From positions 1-45,610 of the IMG/VR virus record IMGVR_UViG_2853968202_000001: a stretch of DNA of 45,610 nt. One strand, 5' to 3'. This document shows positions 1,284 to 40,284 of the stretch, piece by piece. The notes under the pieces are model-generated. The model saw only the letters and a list, made by a program, of their open reading frames with translations, did no database searches and was not told where the DNA came from. Origin of the DNA: a virus. Made by a program: the position numbers and the translations under genes. How positions within the stretch are numbered: the stretch's first letter is position 1; each line of letters starts with the position of its first letter.

Positions 1284-1335
1284 CGTAGCTTTAAGCTCTC
1301 CGAGATCTTTGCTCTCTTTGAGGCAGGAGAGCTAT

Positions 1336-2109
1336 ATGAGAATCGGAGTTACCAATCAGAAGGGAGGAGCCGGCAAGACGACAACCACGCTGAACGTGGC
1401 CGGCGCGTTGAACCAACTCGGGAACGATGTCCTCGTGATCGACTTGGATCCACAGGGCCACGCCACCGAAGGACTCGGATGCGAGGATCTGTACGACGAC
1501 CGCGAGCGCGACTCGTTGTTCGATGTACTCCCCGACCTGGACCGAATGGACGACCTTGACCAACTGATCATCGAGCACGATGAGGTCGATGCCGTCCCGT
1601 CGCACGAGAAGATGATTAATGCCGAGGACGCGCTCGCGAACGTGATGAAACGCGAGGAGCGCCTCGACATGCTCCTCGAGGAGACTGACCAAGACTACGA
1701 CTACGTGCTGGTCGACTGCCCGCCGAACCTCGGCGTGCTCACGGACAACGCGATCGTCGCGACGGGAAACGTGCTGATCCCGGCACAGGCGAAGACAACG
1801 TCGATCCGTGCAATCAAACTCCTGTTCAAGCAACTCCGCTCGATCGAGTCCGCGTTCGGCGATGTCGACGAACTCGCGCTGGTCGCGAACGAGGTCGAGG
1901 TCGACGGCGAGGCCGACGAAATGATGGACTGGTTCAGAAATGTCTTTGAGGACAAAGACGGGTGCGAGGTTTTTGAGGTCAGAAAGCGAGTCGCCTTGCA
2001 GCGCGCCTGGAACAACGGCGTCTCGATCTTCGAACACGAGGAAGAGTCTGATATGGAAGATGTGTATCTCGATGTCGCCCGGCACCTGGAGGCGTTCGGC
2101 GATGAGTGA
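1336..2109 (+). CDS. parA: ParA/Soj-family partition ATPase
   Basis: Deviant Walker A KGGAGKTTT in MRIGVTNQKGGAGKTTTTLNVAGAL, followed by DLDPQGHAT and VLVDCPPNLG. Internal ATG at 1336 is preceded by AGGAGAG. The track ORF begins at 1309. Confidence 0.9.
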   Translation: MRIGVTNQKGGAGKTTTTLNVAGALNQLGNDVLVIDLDPQGHATEGLGCEDLYDDRERDSLFDVLPDLDRMDDLDQLIIEHDEVDAVPSHEKMINAEDALANVMKREERLDMLLEETDQDYDYVLVDCPPNLGVLTDNAIVATGNVLIPAQAKTTSIRAIKLLFKQLRSIESAFGDVDELALVANEVEVDGEADEMMDWFRNVFEDKDGCEVFEVRKRVALQRAWNNGVSIFEHEEESDMEDVYLDVARHLEAFGDE

Positions 2110-2470
2110 CAAGCGCGATTACGACCCGTGGGACGACCGCTACGACGGGAGAGACAACTCAAAGAGCGAGGAGACGACAGAGACGGCAGATACATCAAAG
2201 ATGCAACAGAGCACACAGACGGAAGAGAGTTCAGAGAACTCAAAGGGTGAAGGTGGTTCAGAAACAGTCCGCGAGCGCAGGAACGTAAACATGTACTTGC
2301 CGGACGACCTCGTCGACGACCTGCAACTGCGGTACTCGGAACTGAACGTCAAGTGGCGACGGGAGCACGGTGACGATCTCCCGAAGAATGGCGAGTTCTA
2401 TCCAGCGGCGATCCGCGCAGCGCTGAACGAAACGTCGATCGAGGAGGAGCTCGGCCTCGACGACGAGTGA
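2102..2470 (+). CDS. Small acidic ParA-partner protein with an RHH-like C-terminal segment (candidate centromere-binding adaptor)
   Basis: ATG at 2102 overlaps the end of parA by 8 nt (ATGAGTGA). RRNVNMYLPDDLVDDLQLRYSELNVKWRRE resembles a strand-helix DNA-binding unit. Position immediately after parA. Confidence 0.6.
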   Translation: MSDKRDYDPWDDRYDGRDNSKSEETTETADTSKMQQSTQTEESSENSKGEGGSETVRERRNVNMYLPDDLVDDLQLRYSELNVKWRREHGDDLPKNGEFYPAAIRAALNETSIEEELGLDDE

Positions 2471-2587: not shown

Positions 2588-3136
2588 TCAGTTGTCGGGG
2601 TAGCCGATCGGTCGCGGATCCTCGAGTCGATCTTCGACGAAGTCGTTAGCCGGCCCGAACTCCCGGTCGGTCTCTGCGACGTGCTCGTTGGGATGGTGCC
2701 ACAGCGTCGGCTCTTCCAGAGCCATCACCTCGACACCGCCGTTCATCTCGAATAGTCGGACACGGACCTGACGGTTCGGGAGCGGATGATCTGGATCGTA
2801 GAAGTATAAACGCATGCACTCGTCCTCTCCCTCGAATCTCGATCCAACTGGCCACCCCTGGACAAAGCCCTGCTCAGCGAGGGTCTGTCGGACCTCCTCG
2901 AGGGATCGCTCCCTGAAAAACGACGGGTGGTTGGGCTTGGCGACGGTGCCATAGTTACGTCTGACCCAGCGAGCCAGCTCTCGCTTCGCTGCCCAGGGGA
3001 GCTTCTTGAGTGGGATTTTGCCGTTGTCGCGGAAGCTCCGGGCACTTTTGATCATCCCGCCGATGAGCATGAGCAGAGCGACGGCTAACTGAGGGTCGAT
3101 ACTGTTGACTAATCGGATGAGTTCTGCGTTGGTCAT
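2588..3136 (-). CDS. Hypothetical protein with an N-terminal hydrophobic anchor (182 aa); last gene of the late operon
   Basis: ATG start. LAVALLMLIGGMI near the N-terminus is followed by a soluble domain. Starts 3 nt after the stop of the upstream 89-aa membrane protein gene. Confidence 0.7.
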   Translation of the reverse strand: MTNAELIRLVNSIDPQLAVALLMLIGGMIKSARSFRDNGKIPLKKLPWAAKRELARWVRRNYGTVAKPNHPSFFRERSLEEVRQTLAEQGFVQGWPVGSRFEGEDECMRLYFYDPDHPLPNRQVRVRLFEMNGGVEVMALEEPTLWHHPNEHVAETDREFGPANDFVEDRLEDPRPIGYPDN

Positions 3137-3138
3137 AT

Positions 3139-3408
3139 CTAATCGTCGTCGCTCTCGAGGCTGACCTTCAAGCCATTTCCGAGGAACAATTCAAGGATGT
3201 CCGGAGCGCCCACTGCCAGAATGAAGAGTGCAATCTGATAGCCTTGCATACCCGTCTGAAGGCCAATGTAGGCGATTAGTAGCGACAGTAAGAGGTTCTT
3301 GGCTGCTTTGTATATTTCTACACCCATTCCGTATCTACCCCTCAACTCCCGGTCTAACCCGACTGTGAACTCGCCGATTGACTGGTCGTCGTCGTGTCTG
3401 ATACCCAT
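3139..3408 (-). CDS. Small membrane protein, two predicted TM segments (89 aa); holin-like by size and position
   Basis: ATG start. Hydrophobic stretches LLLSLLIAYIGL and IALFILAVGAP. Charged C-terminus SLESDDD. Confidence 0.65.
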   Translation of the reverse strand: MGIRHDDDQSIGEFTVGLDRELRGRYGMGVEIYKAAKNLLLSLLIAYIGLQTGMQGYQIALFILAVGAPDILELFLGNGLKVSLESDDD

Positions 3409-3604
3409 GACTAATATTGCTCCCTAGGTTTATCGTGGTGTTCGTAAACAGTGCTAGAGCCTCGGGATCTCTCTTGCATGGAGGAATCCCTTGGCCGCCG
3501 TAGGGGTTCTCTCCCCTGCGTTTTCGTACCCTCATTCATATGATTAGTTGGATTCAATTCATCCACACGCAGACAGTTTCTTATCGTACTATTCGGTTTG
3601 CCGG

Positions 3605-3847
3605 CTATCTCTCCCGTCCGCCGTCCCCAATGAGCTTCTCTCGAGAGGCATCAACGCTGACGGCATCCGAGAGAACCCACAAAAGGAGCGAGACAGCCGT
3701 CAAGATGAGGAAATCCTGCACGATCGGGGTGACTACATATCCTTGTTCAACGAACTTCTTGGCGGATTCTGAGAAGAATAGCAGCGTCAGCCACGGGTTT
3801 TCGATTATCTCGCTATAGATGCGTCTCAGGTTGCGGTGTTCAGTCAT
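3605..3847 (-). CDS. Small membrane protein, two predicted TM segments (80 aa)
   Basis: ATG start. Hydrophobic stretches WLTLLFF and FLILTAVSLLLWVL. Lies in a visibly AT-richer region just downstream of the fibre genes. Confidence 0.55.
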   Translation of the reverse strand: MTEHRNLRRIYSEIIENPWLTLLFFSESAKKFVEQGYVVTPIVQDFLILTAVSLLLWVLSDAVSVDASREKLIGDGGRER

Positions 3848-3936: not shown

Positions 3937-5274
3937 TCACATTTCGGGGACGTTATCGTCGACCCAGATCGAGAGGTTCCGCTCGTAGAGATCGTTATCG
4001 ACCGGCGATCCCCAGTCCCCTCCAAAGTGGTAGTGGCGGCGCCAGTACGGGATCCCTCGGTCGGCGAACTCCTCTTCGAGAAACAGATACTCGTCGTAGT
4101 CCCACGCCTTGACGCCATTCACCCACCCCTCGAGCCGCCCGTCTGGCACGCCAGGAGTGTTCAGCGTGATTCGGTAGTCGATTGTGGTCCACTCGCCTTT
4201 GCTCCCGCCTTCGGTCCAGCAGTGATGCCACCCGTGCTTGTGTTCGTCAGGGTCAACAGTCGCATCATAGACCTGCGATAAGAACGGCACCTCAGCACCT
4301 CCCGAGGCGTCGTGGATGCCACCCTGACACGGCGACCCCATCCGCATCGAGTAAGAGGCACCCTGATTATGATTGCCACCCGCAGCGCCGCCGGGGTCCT
4401 CCTCAGTACCACGATGATCGGCCCAACCTGGCAGCTTGGTGCCGCCATTGATACCGTCGTCCCACGTCTGCCAGTCCTCCGGGAAGAACAACTCGAAACG
4501 AGCGTGTGCGACTCGAGGCTCGTAGCCGACCGCGTTCTCGAGGTACACTCGCTCGTTGATTCCGAGAATTTCATCCTCCGGATAGAACACCTCGAGCGCT
4601 TTCCCGCCACCGCCCGCAGGGTCATCCACGATGTGGCAGCGCTCTGCTCGCGTGGCCTCGACGCCAGTCGCGGAGTGGTAGTCGGGCGTCGGCTCGGATG
4701 GCTTCACGCCGCCGAGAGACTCCTGTGGTTGATCCTCTTCGACCGACCGGAGCGGACGGATCTGATTGATGTTGTAGCGGTATCTCGTCGTCTCGGTACC
4801 GCCTCCAGTGTAGATTCCGGCTGTCGCGACTAACGCCTCACTTTTGATGGGATACTCGATATGGCTCCGACCACGATCGTAGGGAGCTCTGCCGGCAGCG
4901 CAAACGACCTGATAGCCTTTGCCGGCCTCGAGAGGCGTCGTGAACGTGAAGGAGTCCCCCGCCTCGAGAGTATCGATCGACCGCCGCTCGAGGATGTCGC
5001 CACCGCCGTCCTTGAGATAGGCCATCACGAGGCCGGACGTCTGCTCAGAGAGTCGACACTCGAGGCCTTCGAGATTTTGCTCTGCACGGATTCGAACTCC
5101 GGAGTGGTGGCTCTGTCCGGCCTGTTGCTGGTCGTCAGACTCGAGGTCGAGCGCCTCAAGCGGTTCTGGTTCCTCAGGTTCTTCCGGTTCTGGTTCTGTG
5201 TCTGTCCTATTGTCTCGGTCTTGTCCTCTGAGTAGCCACTCAAGGCACTCGAGGATTGCATTCAGTGGGTTCAT
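3937..5274 (-). CDS. Tail-associated protein with a C-terminal polysaccharide-lyase-like / concanavalin-like domain (445 aa)
   Basis: ATG directly follows the stop of the upstream spike gene. The C-terminus has GTKLPGW, W.TIDYRITLNTPGVPDGRLEGWVNG and HFGGDWG, which I recall as typical of the PL14-type polysaccharide lyase fold. N-terminal EPEPEEPEEPEP linker. Confidence 0.55.
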   Translation of the reverse strand: MNPLNAILECLEWLLRGQDRDNRTDTEPEPEEPEEPEPLEALDLESDDQQQAGQSHHSGVRIRAEQNLEGLECRLSEQTSGLVMAYLKDGGGDILERRSIDTLEAGDSFTFTTPLEAGKGYQVVCAAGRAPYDRGRSHIEYPIKSEALVATAGIYTGGGTETTRYRYNINQIRPLRSVEEDQPQESLGGVKPSEPTPDYHSATGVEATRAERCHIVDDPAGGGGKALEVFYPEDEILGINERVYLENAVGYEPRVAHARFELFFPEDWQTWDDGINGGTKLPGWADHRGTEEDPGGAAGGNHNQGASYSMRMGSPCQGGIHDASGGAEVPFLSQVYDATVDPDEHKHGWHHCWTEGGSKGEWTTIDYRITLNTPGVPDGRLEGWVNGVKAWDYDEYLFLEEEFADRGIPYWRRHYHFGGDWGSPVDNDLYERNLSIWVDDNVPEM

Positions 5275-27368: not shown

Positions 27369-27656
27369 TCAGAATCCGGGCGCGTCAGGACTCGGTGACG
27401 GTGCTGACGTATCTCGAGGTGACGGTGGTTGCATCCGCTTCGAGACACGCCGGTTGCCGTGCTTGCCGTCCTGGTGGCAGTCGGTACAGAGCCCGATCAG
27501 ATTGTTCGGGTCGTTGTTGTGTTTCCGTTCGTCCTGGTGGTGGAGCTCGATCCCGTCGACGGCGTCTCGAGGCCGGCCGCAGCCAGGGCACCGATAGGAG
27601 CTCCCGTCTCGATCGGACCAATAGAGATCGCGACCGAGTTGGCGTTGGTCAGCCAT
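27369..27656 (-). CDS. HNH endonuclease (95 aa), terminase-associated
   Basis: CPGCG ... ELHHQDERKHNNDPNNLIGLCTDCHQ is a canonical HNH (His-Asn-His plus zinc) motif. It lies immediately upstream of TerS/TerL. Confidence 0.85.
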   Translation of the reverse strand: MADQRQLGRDLYWSDRDGSSYRCPGCGRPRDAVDGIELHHQDERKHNNDPNNLIGLCTDCHQDGKHGNRRVSKRMQPPSPRDTSAPSPSPDAPGF

Positions 27657-27843
27657 CGATGATCAGGAGTGTGTAGGTACACTCCTCACAGAGGGTCACG
27701 GTATCGCCCTCGTTGTAGCCAGCTTCTGAAAGGTCGCCGGCGAGCTGGCTGGTTCTGAAAAACTGCGGCGAGAACTGTGCGAGGAGCGCTGGCGACGGAT
27801 CGCACCGTCCTCCACAGCGGTCGCAGGCTGCTTTGTATCCCAT
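27649..27843 (-). CDS. Small zinc-ribbon protein (64 aa)
   Basis: ATG at 27843 chosen (the track ORF extends to 27942). CDRCGGRC ... CEEC. 8-nt overlap with the HNH start. Confidence 0.5.
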   Translation of the reverse strand: MGYKAACDRCGGRCDPSPALLAQFSPQFFRTSQLAGDLSEAGYNEGDTVTLCEECTYTLLIIDG

Positions 27844-27857
27844 ATTTCTGAAAACTG

Positions 27858-27992
27858 CTATCGCCACCGCTCGAGGTCGCAAACGACCAGGGACCGGAGC
27901 CAGCCGTCGGGCGTCCCATCCCAGAGGATAAGCCAGCCACACCCTTCGATCTCTTTCACGTCGTCTTCGCGGTCGAGAGGGTCGATAGCCAT
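27858..27992 (-). CDS. Small acidic hypothetical protein (44 aa)
   Basis: Hand translation gives MAIDPLDREDDVKEIEGCGWLILWDGTPDGWLRSLVVCDLERWR. Below the ORF-track cutoff. Fills the gap between flanking genes. Confidence 0.3.
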   Translation of the reverse strand: MAIDPLDREDDVKEIEGCGWLILWDGTPDGWLRSLVVCDLERWR

Positions 27993-28014: not shown

Positions 28015-28293
28015 TCACTTGTCCGTCGGAAGTAGGCGTTCGGCCTCGAGGTTCCAGAGGCGACCGACCAGCAGGAACACGAGCGCCGTGAACAGCCCGT
28101 AGTAAGGCGGGGCGACTGCCGCAACCCCCTCAAACGTGAGCGAGAGGGAGATCACCGACCAGAGAACGACCAAAATTAGCGCAACAACCTTCGGGACCGT
28201 CTCAGTCTCATCCTGCGGCATCAGTGCCCTCCAAAGTCCGACAGCCTCGATTTTCGCGCGCTCGTACGACGGAGTGTGTGGTTTGGCAGACAT
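28015..28293 (-). CDS. Small membrane protein, two TM segments (92 aa)
   Basis: ATG start. VVALILVVLWSVISLSL and LFTALVFLLVG. Confidence 0.6.
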   Translation of the reverse strand: MSAKPHTPSYERAKIEAVGLWRALMPQDETETVPKVVALILVVLWSVISLSLTFEGVAAVAPPYYGLFTALVFLLVGRLWNLEAERLLPTDK

Positions 28294-28302
28294 AGGTCAT
28301 CC

Positions 28303-28563
28303 TCAGTCCGTGAGTCCGCCGACGATCTGGTCCGCTACGGGGATCACCGCCCCCATCGCCACCTCGAACGATCCTGGTTCTGGCTCCTCGCCACGAGCCG
28401 CAACCAAGACACCAGCGATTGCACCAATTGCCAGCGTCCGACTAAATTTGCGTGGCTTAAATTCCTTCTCGTCGTTTAAGACTGCGTGAGCGTATCCCGA
28501 AACGGCATACGCAGCGCCCAAGACGACGTACAGTGCAAGCATCACCGCCTTATTTTCTGCCAT
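28303..28563 (-). CDS. Small membrane protein (86 aa), first gene after the 28.6-29.1 kb gap
   Basis: ATG start. AVMLALYVVLGAAYAV and LAIGAIAGVLVA. Confidence 0.6.
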   Translation of the reverse strand: MAENKAVMLALYVVLGAAYAVSGYAHAVLNDEKEFKPRKFSRTLAIGAIAGVLVAARGEEPEPGSFEVAMGAVIPVADQIVGGLTD

Positions 28564-39087: not shown

Positions 39088-40158
39088 CTATGATGCGTTC
39101 GCCAGTAGCTCCAGCTGAATCGGTACCTCGAGATTCTCGTCGATGACTTCGTACTCTGCCCATCTGTTTTCTCCGTGCTGCCTGACGAGATCGTACTCTA
39201 CCAGTTTCGATAGGTAGTCGTTCACCCGTCGCCTCGAGACAGGGTCGTGATCTCGATCGGCGTAGATCGCGGACCCATGAGTCTCGTACAGTGAGTGGAG
39301 CCGCGCGCCATCGACGAGATTGGCGTCGGCGTACCGAAGGAGTTCATAGATCACACAGGGGCCGAACGGTAGGCTCCGGAGATTCGTCTCTCGGATCTTC
39401 GTACGTGCGCGGCCAAACGCATCTCGGATATCGTGCTCTCGGATCCGGCTATGGTCTCGTTCTTCGGCGAACTCCGCCGCAGACAGCAGCGACTGGATCC
39501 CATAGCGCGCGACGCCGGCGACTTCGTCGGCGATCCACTCCAGTTGTTCATTATGGATGACGCCGGGCTCGAGGCCATGCTCAGCACGGTGCTCGAGAAT
39601 ATCCGCGAGTTCGTCGACAGCGTATCGTTCGAACTCGATCTGCGATTTGAGCGAGAAGTAGTTTTGAAGCTCGTCATCGAGGCGGGCCAGCCACTCTCGA
39701 GGTTCATGGACGATCGCGATGACCGAGAGCAGCGGAATCTCGTATAGATCGCGGAGGACCTTCAGGTCGCGGACTGTTTCGGCTTCGTCGAGGATCACGA
39801 CGTAGGGCTGGTCAACAATGCTCTCGAGAGCGTCAACCAGCTGGTCGGCTGGCGAGTTTGGCCGCACTGCGGCATCGACCCGATGCTTTATCGCGGCTTC
39901 GTGGAGGATCGCGCAACGTGTGTTGCTCGAGTTGATCAATGTCCAATCGATGCTGTAGTCACGAAATTCGCGGCGGAGAACGTGTCGAGCGGTCGTTGTC
40001 TTTCCGACACCCGATGGGCCATAGATCAGCACGTCCTCGCCGCGCTGACCTCTCGTTGCCGGCTCGAGAGCTCGCGTGAGTTGCTCGCACTCACTATGCC
40101 GATGGGGAACCTGTTCCGGGAGCCGCTCGTCGAGAAACACCCATCGTTTGGTAATCAT
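39088..40158 (-). CDS. orc1: Orc1/Cdc6-type replication initiator (AAA+ plus C-terminal winged helix, 356 aa)
   Basis: LPHR-type N-terminal motif (VPHRHSECEQL). Walker A GPSGVGKTT. Walker B VVILDEAE. Winged-helix-like C-terminus. ATG 40158 preferred over GTG 40218. Confidence 0.85.
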   Translation of the reverse strand: MITKRWVFLDERLPEQVPHRHSECEQLTRALEPATRGQRGEDVLIYGPSGVGKTTTARHVLRREFRDYSIDWTLINSSNTRCAILHEAAIKHRVDAAVRPNSPADQLVDALESIVDQPYVVILDEAETVRDLKVLRDLYEIPLLSVIAIVHEPREWLARLDDELQNYFSLKSQIEFERYAVDELADILEHRAEHGLEPGVIHNEQLEWIADEVAGVARYGIQSLLSAAEFAEERDHSRIREHDIRDAFGRARTKIRETNLRSLPFGPCVIYELLRYADANLVDGARLHSLYETHGSAIYADRDHDPVSRRRVNDYLSKLVEYDLVRQHGENRWAEYEVIDENLEVPIQLELLANAS

Positions 40159-40284
40159 TACTGACCGTTTCAATAGATGGTGTAAAAGGTCTGACGGGCG
40201 TTGTTTCGGAGAGGACACCGCGTACTTCCGCTGTAACCCACGAACAGCGAGAGAGACCCGCCCTTAGGGCGAGAGGGCCGTGGA

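Follow-up and report, generated by a model that had tools for sequence, protein, structure and literature searches.

How tailed viruses of haloarchaea break cells that have a membrane and a surface layer (S-layer) and no murein is an open problem, and the players in their egress were called 'completely uncharacterized' in a 2024 review (PMC10791045), in agreement with an earlier note on the sequence studied here. We address this problem through two adjacent genes, p89 and p182, in IMG/VR record IMGVR_UViG_2853968202_000001, a complete 45,610-bp contig of Haloterrigena salifodinae that was analysed over its whole length (the window). The earlier note, made from the sequence alone, had grouped these genes with a third open reading frame (ORF), p80, as a candidate lysis cassette of holin and signal-anchored endolysin. 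We tentatively favour a reading in which p89 and p182 represent a membrane-associated, non-structural module that recurs among haloarchaeal tailed viruses, probably serves late envelope disruption and probably includes two further small proteins, w92 and w86.

Candidate lysis genes have been put forward in several of these viruses. In Hardycor1, genes 155-165 'could represent the lysis module' on positional grounds (Dyall-Smith et al. 2021, PMC7911831). In HRTV-DL1, ORF6 was proposed as a holin, and ORF27, next to the glycosyl-hydrolase-like ORF26, was discussed as a lysis candidate, ORF6 and ORF27 alike being considered as holins; according to its authors, an integrated variant without ORF6 does not lyse, and ORF27, found as a single peptide in purified virions, ranked sixth among the viral ORFs by transcription at 56 h post infection, just before lysis (Mercier et al., bioRxiv 10.1101/2022.10.18.512658). 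In HFTV1, gp33-gp34 form a 'proposed (late) lysis transcript' that is maximal when lysis occurs (PMC12542753). The lysis idea for homologues of the genes described here is not new, having been proposed in the first two of these studies (2021-2022). What our analysis adds is a link between the p182 family and ORF6/gp33-type proteins, a predicted cytoplasmic orientation, a His/Glu site and the finding that the window copy appears degenerate. The comparison joins guesses that were made separately for Hardycor1 gp155-165, HRTV-DL1 ORF6 and ORF27, and HFTV1 gp33-34.

The p182 family

All three ORFs of the cassette first proposed are present on the minus strand (Table 1). Two of them, p182 and p89, are real genes as judged from homologues and coding statistics: their best frames are unambiguous (0.31 and 0.26 bits per codon, respectively) and the other frames are negative or close to zero. 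They are adjacent, with 2 nt between the p89 stop codon (3139-3141) and the p182 ATG (3134-3136).

The 182-aa protein, which had been thought to match no family, belongs to a sizeable family of virus proteins that includes phrog_6788 (PHROGs v4, unknown function). An exhaustive profile search gathered 215 representative clusters at 50% identity, 109 of them with E<=1e-10, and phrog_6788 is matched by 82 of the 133 representatives that were aligned (best E 9e-13). The window protein itself matches phrog_6788 weakly (E 0.0064, short of the usual significance threshold); it scores 148 bits against the profile from alignment A3, which contains window p182, and its full-length similarity to family members is significant. 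A word-indexed search found four close homologues (51-57% identity), p182 being 57% identical to a Natrialba protein and 38% to gp165 of Hardycor1 (HrrHc1_165). Members from isolated viruses include HrrHc1_165, BJ1 ORF2, CGphi46 HALG_00042 and Humcor1 HrrHm1_115, and HRTV-DL1 ORF27 is a distant member (23.7 bits against the family hidden Markov model (HMM)). The contexts that could be read are almost all tailed-virus or virus-like contigs from hypersaline samples, the exception being one short contig in which the gene lies beside a UbiA gene.

The cassette proteins, p182 among them, have no match in Pfam or NCBIfam, and no Pfam family is matched consistently among the 133 representatives; PDB sequence searches with alignments A1 and A3 and with the 445-aa protein encoded upstream of p80 returned solely a chance-level chorismate synthase (E 0.4). 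A family query scanned against a genome collection gave the Natrialba contig as its sole match, and tblastn of a family member against plasmids gave none. Likewise, there was no match against phages for the cassette region (megablast) or for p89, p80 and the 445-aa protein (tblastn), and none to the cassette proteins in a PADLOC scan.

Conserved site and predicted topology

The structure prediction and Foldseek comparison that the earlier note had suggested as a check gave a confident AlphaFold2 (AF2) model of p182 (pLDDT 91.0, pTM 0.75) and no lytic-enzyme fold. The model consists of a long N-terminal helix (15-38), a basic helix (48-62) and a beta-alpha-beta-beta-beta-alpha core, so that p182 shows the LPW...R...F helix followed by the core that is typical of the family. 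No solved structure in the PDB was hit at E<0.001 (best E 0.065, TM-score 0.29), and within a viral library the model matches unannotated halovirus proteins and BJ1 ORF2 only. BamC-N, KA1 and SRPBCC-like folds were considered for the domain and dropped, the Foldseek hits being weak, mutually inconsistent and all below a TM-score of 0.3; the fold comparison likewise gives no support to 'SRPBCC family protein', the name that UniProt attaches to BJ1 ORF2.

Across the family, S98, Y99, Y101, G103, E104, N107, Q123, H125 (99%), R127 (100%), H140 (98%), E142 and H152 (100%) are near-invariant, and H148 (67%) and R110 (78%) are conserved, well short of invariance. Strands 121-131 and 134-143 form a hairpin in the AF2 model, which would bring H125 opposite H140 and Q123 opposite E142 on a single face of the sheet and leave H148 and H152 to the next helix. 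This arrangement suggests that canonical members carry a probable metal or catalytic site of His/His/His/Glu type.

Most family members are about 145 aa long and start at the conserved basic helix (LPWxxxRRxxxxxRxxF). The N-terminal anchor that was described for p182 exists as one short hydrophobic stretch (aa 17-31) and is borderline by Kyte-Doolittle hydropathy (19-residue mean 1.56); its hydrophobic core has ~14 residues, among them Gly and Ala, and may correspond to a weakly hydrophobic helix of the signal-anchor-release (SAR) type. Such a segment is found in 31 of the 133 representatives and is absent from 102. In 38 anchored members the region before the helix has a mean net charge of -1.2 and 0.8 Lys/Arg, and the 20 residues after it have a mean net charge of +3.7 and 5.1 Lys/Arg; Lys/Arg are richer after than before the helix in 35 of them. 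By the positive-inside rule, this asymmetry implies that the conserved domain stays in the cytoplasm, and p182 is predicted to be N-out/C-in with its domain facing the cytoplasm. This prediction agrees with the absence of any type of signal from most members; direct reading of the p182 sequence gave no twin-arginine or Sec-type signal.

Gene neighbourhood of the family

Lysis cassettes of bacterial siphoviruses (lambda-like and Gram-positive phages) sit after the tail fibres or just before terS. In the related viral loci compared here (L-numbers, from L004 and L006 to L031, which is HFTV1), the p182-family gene follows tail or fibre genes in Hardycor1, BJ1, CGphi46, Humcor1, a Natrialba provirus and two metagenomic contigs, and where a strand switch is visible the tail-end gene is mostly the last before the switch. 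Small proteins with two or three hydrophobic spans precede the tail-end family gene in the window, the Natrialba provirus, L004, L026 and Hardycor1. In a second arrangement (L006, L007, L009/L010 and L011), a gene for an 89-106-aa protein with two transmembrane (TM) segments overlaps the start of the family gene, and the pair lies immediately upstream of CxxC, HNH, terS and TerL genes. In addition, L015, L023/L024 and L025 have small 2-TM genes beside soluble family members.

A small membrane-protein gene is directly adjacent to the family gene in 12 of 19 distinct loci, which are not all independent, so that a nominal P is overstated; about 16% would be expected, as small membrane genes make up 8% of the genes in these contigs (crude gene caller). 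The two genes often share an overlapping stop and start. The association of the family gene with small membrane genes is clear, and the partner proteins fall into several unrelated sequence families, as holins usually do. Since these partners include the ORF6/gp33-like family described below, the association partly supports a reading as a lysis module. Of the original argument from position and architecture, then, the position holds up, being conserved across these viruses, and the signal-anchored endolysin does not, given the predicted topology, the lack of a lytic fold and the many members without an anchor.

Some loci depart from these arrangements. In L026 there is an overlap between the end of the p182 homologue and a 131-aa gene (1574-1969), which means that the family gene is not always last in its operon. 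In L023 (7351-11155; also L024) a family member and a 63-aa 2-TM protein are encoded between TerL and the portal gene, an unusual spot for lysis genes. In L014 (495-2467) a soluble 147-aa member directly follows a UbiA-type prenyltransferase gene and is followed in tandem by a 211-aa distant paralogue that shares its RQxHV...AHEE...H motif; this is the sole context that hints at lipid metabolism.

Small membrane proteins and their relation to ORF6 and gp33

HRTV-DL1 ORF6 and BJ1 ORF46, both of which are encoded upstream of terS, align well with the 2-TM proteins whose genes come before the family gene in L006, L007, L009 and L011. ORF6, a 100-aa 2-TM protein, thus belongs to the small-protein family that precedes p182-family genes elsewhere. 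The ORF6-like profile also matches HFTV1 gp33 (L031 16702-17034) at 18.2 bits, a score that none of 1000 composition-matched shuffles reached (best shuffle 9.8), and the shared signature consists of TM1, a loop (..YAIS.GA.P..) and TM2. The membrane gene and the family gene are far apart in HRTV-DL1 and BJ1, whereas they are adjacent in the window.

The p89 protein has a clear hydrophobic span at aa 59-77 (Kyte-Doolittle 2.02) and a borderline one at aa 32-55 (1.40), and it ends in an acidic tail (...SLESDDD). It therefore has the architecture of a holin (small, 1-4 TM, charged C-terminus, beside an effector gene), with a tail that is acidic and not basic. No significant match places p89 or p80 in a described holin family in Pfam, PHROG, NCBIfam or PADLOC. 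A single sequence homologue of p89 was found (P0160, 72% identity), whose gene is followed by a helix-turn-helix plus Mre11/PolD-small-subunit-like gene of the type found near the pre-terminase region of BJ1 and HRTV-DL1. A first small HMM did not connect p89 with the proteins in the corresponding positions elsewhere. When p89 and P0160 were combined into a profile, the Natrialba protein of 105 aa in the syntenic position scored 12.2 bits (0 of 1000 shuffles did as well), which implies that the p89-p182 pair is orthologous between the two proviruses. The homologues of p89 score 6.7 and 6.5 bits against the ORF6/gp33-like profile (0 of 300 shuffles). The gp33 protein, likewise small and acidic in its tail, has two TM segments and is the last to be expressed in HFTV1; it differs in lying inside the tail-gene region, and p89 is not significantly similar to it. 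By eye, and without statistical support, a G-phi-x-phi-x-phi motif after TM2 followed by an acidic tail can be seen in gp33, the L025 90-aa protein, the Natrialba 105-aa protein and p89.

The AT-rich gap upstream of p89 is as the earlier note described it (Table 1), and its suggestion that the last two genes have their own promoter gains support from a motif of ~40 nt (TAGCAC-GT...CA..ATAA..CTAGGG, 3422-3461) that is conserved upstream of p89, its L027 homologue and the Natrialba gene. It occurs just once in the window, where 0.05 matches are expected, and is confined to this small clade within IMG/VR; its ATAA box lies ~25 nt before the p89 ATG. This element is probably a dedicated promoter or operator, and its conservation supports separate regulation of p89-p182. 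The window contains no Rfam family, the gap folds no better than its shuffles (z -0.9), and no bacterial-type promoter was found in the cassette region with a tool that does not model archaeal promoters. A terminator-like GC hairpin with a T-run is present at 3499-3520 on the plus strand, in the p80-p89 gap and antisense to the cassette; such sites occur at chance frequency.

The second pair of small ORFs to which the earlier note had pointed, w92 and w86, also exists. The w92 protein has three homologues in IMG/VR, and w86 has none there; neither has a match in PADLOC, the library scanned. In L029 a w92 homologue is encoded directly after an anchored 199-aa p182-family gene (family HMM 5e-15) and is followed by terS and TerL. 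This adjacency suggests that w92 probably belongs to the p182-type functional module.

Comparison with described lysis systems

Like p182, HrrHc1_165, which belongs to the possible lysis module HrrHc1_150/155/165 of Hardycor1, is encoded by the last gene after the tail genes and is preceded by small 2-TM and 3-TM proteins. In contrast to the window, a gene for an acidic 321-aa protein separates the family gene of Hardycor1 from the membrane genes, the Hardycor1 family member retains the conserved His/Glu residues, and the small membrane proteins of this virus have no detectable homology to p89 or p80. HRTV-DL1 ORF27 resembles p182 in being N-terminally anchored (222 aa) and in following the tail genes and a glycan-hydrolase-like gene; its subfamily has HxT and not HxR.

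The module is organised like a phage lysis cassette, with a larger protein that has no relation to any known lytic protein. Bacterial holin-endolysin cassettes of the SAR type (P1 Lyz, phage 21 R) also place small membrane proteins with charged tails beside a larger protein with a weakly hydrophobic N-terminal helix, at the end or start of the late operon. Compared with these, p182 has no muralytic domain or fold and has the opposite predicted topology, the tails of the small membrane proteins are acidic and not basic, and the host has no murein. The antiholins T4 RIII and lambda S107 are cytoplasmic or membrane-tethered regulators of lysis and in that respect offer a second likeness, a cytoplasmic-side partner encoded beside a small membrane lysis protein. 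The p182 family has no sequence or fold relation to them and carries enzyme-like conserved His/Glu/Arg residues; p182 may have a regulatory role.

A possible mechanism

In the module as we picture it, one or two small polytopic membrane proteins would work with a phrog_6788-family protein, late in infection and at the cytoplasmic membrane; in the window, p89 and p182 would be separately promoted and translationally coupled. The holin-like component, p89 and probably also w92 and w86 from the head of the late operon, would accumulate in the membrane. A short N-terminal helix and the basic interfacial helix would hold p182 at the cytoplasmic face, where it may assist the membrane protein as an effector, or regulate it, rather than work as an exported wall-degrading enzyme. 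Canonical members may be enzymes that act on the inner leaflet or on lipid-linked envelope precursors. With two of its histidines lost, the window p182 might be a binding or regulatory subunit only, or an inactivated copy.

Several observations weigh against this module as a lysis system. No similarity was found between the p182 family and lysozymes, amidases, peptidases, lipases or other lytic enzymes in sequence and fold searches, and none of the cassette proteins resembles a characterised lytic protein by sequence or fold. HFTV1, in which no p182 homologue was found, lyses its host without one; as it has gp33 and no family gene, the family is not essential for lysis in general and would be an accessory or lineage-specific partner rather than a universal effector. 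The lysis role of gp33 and ORF6 goes back to a personal communication and to authors' conjecture, not to published experiments (PMC12542753; bioRxiv 10.1101/2022.10.18.512658). Small membrane genes are missing beside the family gene in BJ1, Humcor1 and CGphi46, and some soluble members lie between TerL and portal genes or in runs of unknown genes. As for p89, its match to the ORF6/gp33-like profile is marginal (4.3 bits, reached by 2 of 300 shuffles), and its match to a profile of the gp33, L025 and Natrialba proteins is not significant (reached by 32 of 1000 shuffles). The shuffle control and the neighbour statistic, moreover, treat related loci as independent.

The window copy of p182 itself is a further point of this kind. 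It carries the changes S98G, Y99S, Y101F, N107C, R110L, H125R and H140L and keeps E104, R127, E142, H148 and H152, so that it lacks part of the near-invariant core (S98, E104, N107, H125, R127, H140, E142, H152). It is off-consensus at 6 of the 14 most conserved columns, the family median being 1 and the next-worst member having 3. Its sequence marks it as a divergent member, possibly an inactive one: an enzymatic role for the family would mean that the window copy is probably inactive, and any function that it retains would have to do without the His pair.

Alternative explanations

A first alternative is that p80, p89 and p182 form a moron-type cassette that is expressed from its own promoter in the carrier (plasmid-provirus) state and alters the membrane of the host, for instance to exclude superinfecting viruses or to block injection. 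HK97 gp15, T4 Imm and Cor-type proteins are the models for such a role, and exclusion genes are known to sit after tail genes in bacterial phages. The unique conserved upstream motif fits this explanation, as do the lower GC content of the cassette (54.6% versus 60.7% for the contig), its place at the very end of the late operon beside the ParA partition module of a circular element, the absence of p80 homologues, and the different downstream gene of the p89 homologue in L027. It is nevertheless doubtful, because the strictly lytic Hardycor1 has a family member, the family gene lies within the late operon next to terminase genes in many viruses, HRTV-DL1 ORF27 is highly transcribed just before lysis in a lytic infection, and the PADLOC scan gave no matches.

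The cassette could also be decaying in this element, with p182 inactivated and p80 not a gene, which would be compatible with the other readings. Among the 133 representatives R125, L140, C107 and G98 occur in the window copy alone, its closest relatives retain every one of the residues altered in it, and p80 combines a lack of homologues with a weak coding score. Decay is nonetheless quite unlikely, as the p182 ORF is intact with a normal coding score and keeps most other conserved positions (among them R127, E142 and H152), and as the virion genes of the element all look intact.

It is very unlikely that the family acts in DNA metabolism or packaging as a metal-dependent enzyme of the cytoplasm, such as a His-Me/HNH-like nuclease with a secondary membrane link. 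In favour of such a role, terS, TerL or portal genes are the direct neighbours of many members, the N-terminal helix is strongly basic, and H125 and H140 sit next to each other across strands, with H148 and H152 on a helix after them; the resulting spacing, H-x14-H-x7-H-x3-H, is one that we take to recall the colicin HNH motif, as a lead only. Against this, Foldseek, Pfam and the PDB gave no His-Me or HNH match, the strands are long and part of a four-stranded sheet instead of a short beta-beta-alpha finger, a quarter of the members are anchored and most have membrane-protein neighbours, and the window already has a typical HNH gene.

Finally, the arrangement first proposed, a holin (p80 and/or p89) with a SAR-type endolysin-like p182 whose exported domain degrades the S-layer or its glycans, has in its favour a weakly hydrophobic, Ala/Gly-rich N-terminal segment like that of SAR domains, a gene order in which p182 follows a small membrane protein, and glycan-active genes directly upstream in several viruses, and is highly improbable given the cytoplasmic domain predicted for nearly all anchored members, the absence of an export signal in p182 and of a hydrophobic segment in most of the family, the lack of any detected hydrolase fold or family, and the loss of conserved His residues in the window copy.

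The element and neighbouring genes

The ends of the window overlap exactly over 92 bp (1-92 = 45519-45610), which indicates a circular assembly and could reflect a plasmid-like provirus or a circularly permuted virus genome; an ACT repeat makes up the first 16 bases. The window encodes the large terminase, portal, HK97-type capsid protein, tape measure and BppU_N baseplate/fibre protein of a tailed virus. Nearly all late genes are on the minus strand, from ~28.5 kb down to 2.6 kb, and converge on the plus-strand ParA module. The ParA and Cdc6/Orc genes, together with the absence of any detected integrase or tRNA gene in the window, suggest an extrachromosomal carrier state of a tailed-virus genome. 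Downstream of the cassette, a 176-aa ORF as listed overlaps the 3' end of parA by ~170 nt; its true start is probably further downstream, since its match to phrog_26668 begins only at aa 55.

On the upstream side, p80 has a coding score of 0.05 bits per codon, which its antisense frame roughly equals, and no homologue was found among 5.8 billion proteins or in any related locus. In place of the two hydrophobic spans once assigned to it, p80 has a single span at aa 46-64, the supposed first span being 9 hydrophobic residues (WLTLLFF). It probably stands outside the proposed system. The 445-aa protein encoded next, which had been labelled a fibre, finds no support for that label in our results. 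Its C-terminus matches PF21294 (E 1.5e-7, 31.8 bits versus a cut-off of 27; profile positions 139-214 of 215), an acidic Pro/Glu linker lies near its N-terminus, and AF2 run without an alignment gave no confident model (pLDDT 40.7). From this match it could be a depolymerase of glycans that is associated with the tail or supplies the glycan-degrading activity of the putative lysis module. A Polysaccharide lyase 14 domain is also encoded upstream of the Natrialba orthologue of p182, and the family gene directly follows glycan-active genes in HRTV-DL1 (levanase-like ORF26) and BJ1 (glycosyltransferase-like ORF1).

At the head of the late operon, the CxxC-HNH-terS order downstream of w92 also occurs in L011, and CxxC-terS without HNH occurs in L028 and L029.

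Table 1. Positions of the features discussed in the window
Feature	Positions	Strand	Basis or remark
ParA-type partition ATPase	1309-2109	+	
176-aa ORF	1940-2470	+	phrog_26668 match, E 1e-33
p182, 182 aa, phrog_6788 family	2588-3136	-	ORF, coding score, homologues, PHROG link, AF2 model
p182 conserved core, aa 95-152, putative metal site	2681-2854	-	Column conservation, AF2 strands
p182 basic helix, aa 44-62, LPWxxxRRxxxxxR	2951-3007	-	P47, W48, R59 conserved; AF2 helix aa 48-62
p182 hydrophobic helix, aa 15-31, Ala/Gly/Leu-rich	3044-3094	-	Hydropathy, AF2 helix aa 15-38, flank charges
p89, 89 aa, small membrane protein, holin-like candidate	3139-3408	-	ORF, hydropathy, coding score, homologue
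AT-rich intergenic region	3409-3604	-	196 bp, 48.5% GC versus 60.7% in the contig
p80, 80 aa, unverified ORFan	3605-3847	-	One hydrophobic span
445-aa protein, C-terminal Polysaccharide lyase 14 match	3937-5274	-	PF21294, aa 359-433
Typical HNH endonuclease	27369-27656	-	Between the w86/w92 pair and the small terminase
CxxC protein	27649-27942	-	Between the w86/w92 pair and the small terminase
w92, 92 aa, two hydrophobic spans	28015-28293	-	Head of late operon, upstream of CxxC, HNH, terS, TerL
w86, 86 aa, hydrophobic	28303-28563	-	Directly upstream of w92
Cdc6/Orc-type replication protein	39088-40218	-	

Implications for haloarchaeal viruses

A more far-reaching proposal, which we regard as unlikely in this full form, is that the phrog_6788 family and ORF6/gp33/p89-type proteins together are the lysis system of haloarchaeal tailed viruses, in which a holin-like protein would be paired with a metal-dependent effector at the cytoplasmic face that attacks the inner leaflet or lipid-linked precursors of the S-layer or its glycans. 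If true, this would be a lysis logic of attack from the inside without a bacterial counterpart. Independently of that proposal, the comparison predicts a partner that faces the cytoplasm, not an exported enzyme. The window copy, from which the conserved histidines are gone, is a poor representative for testing; the wider family is widespread, virus-specific and coupled to small membrane proteins, and it thereby offers concrete gene pairs for tractable hosts such as Haloferax and Halorubrum.

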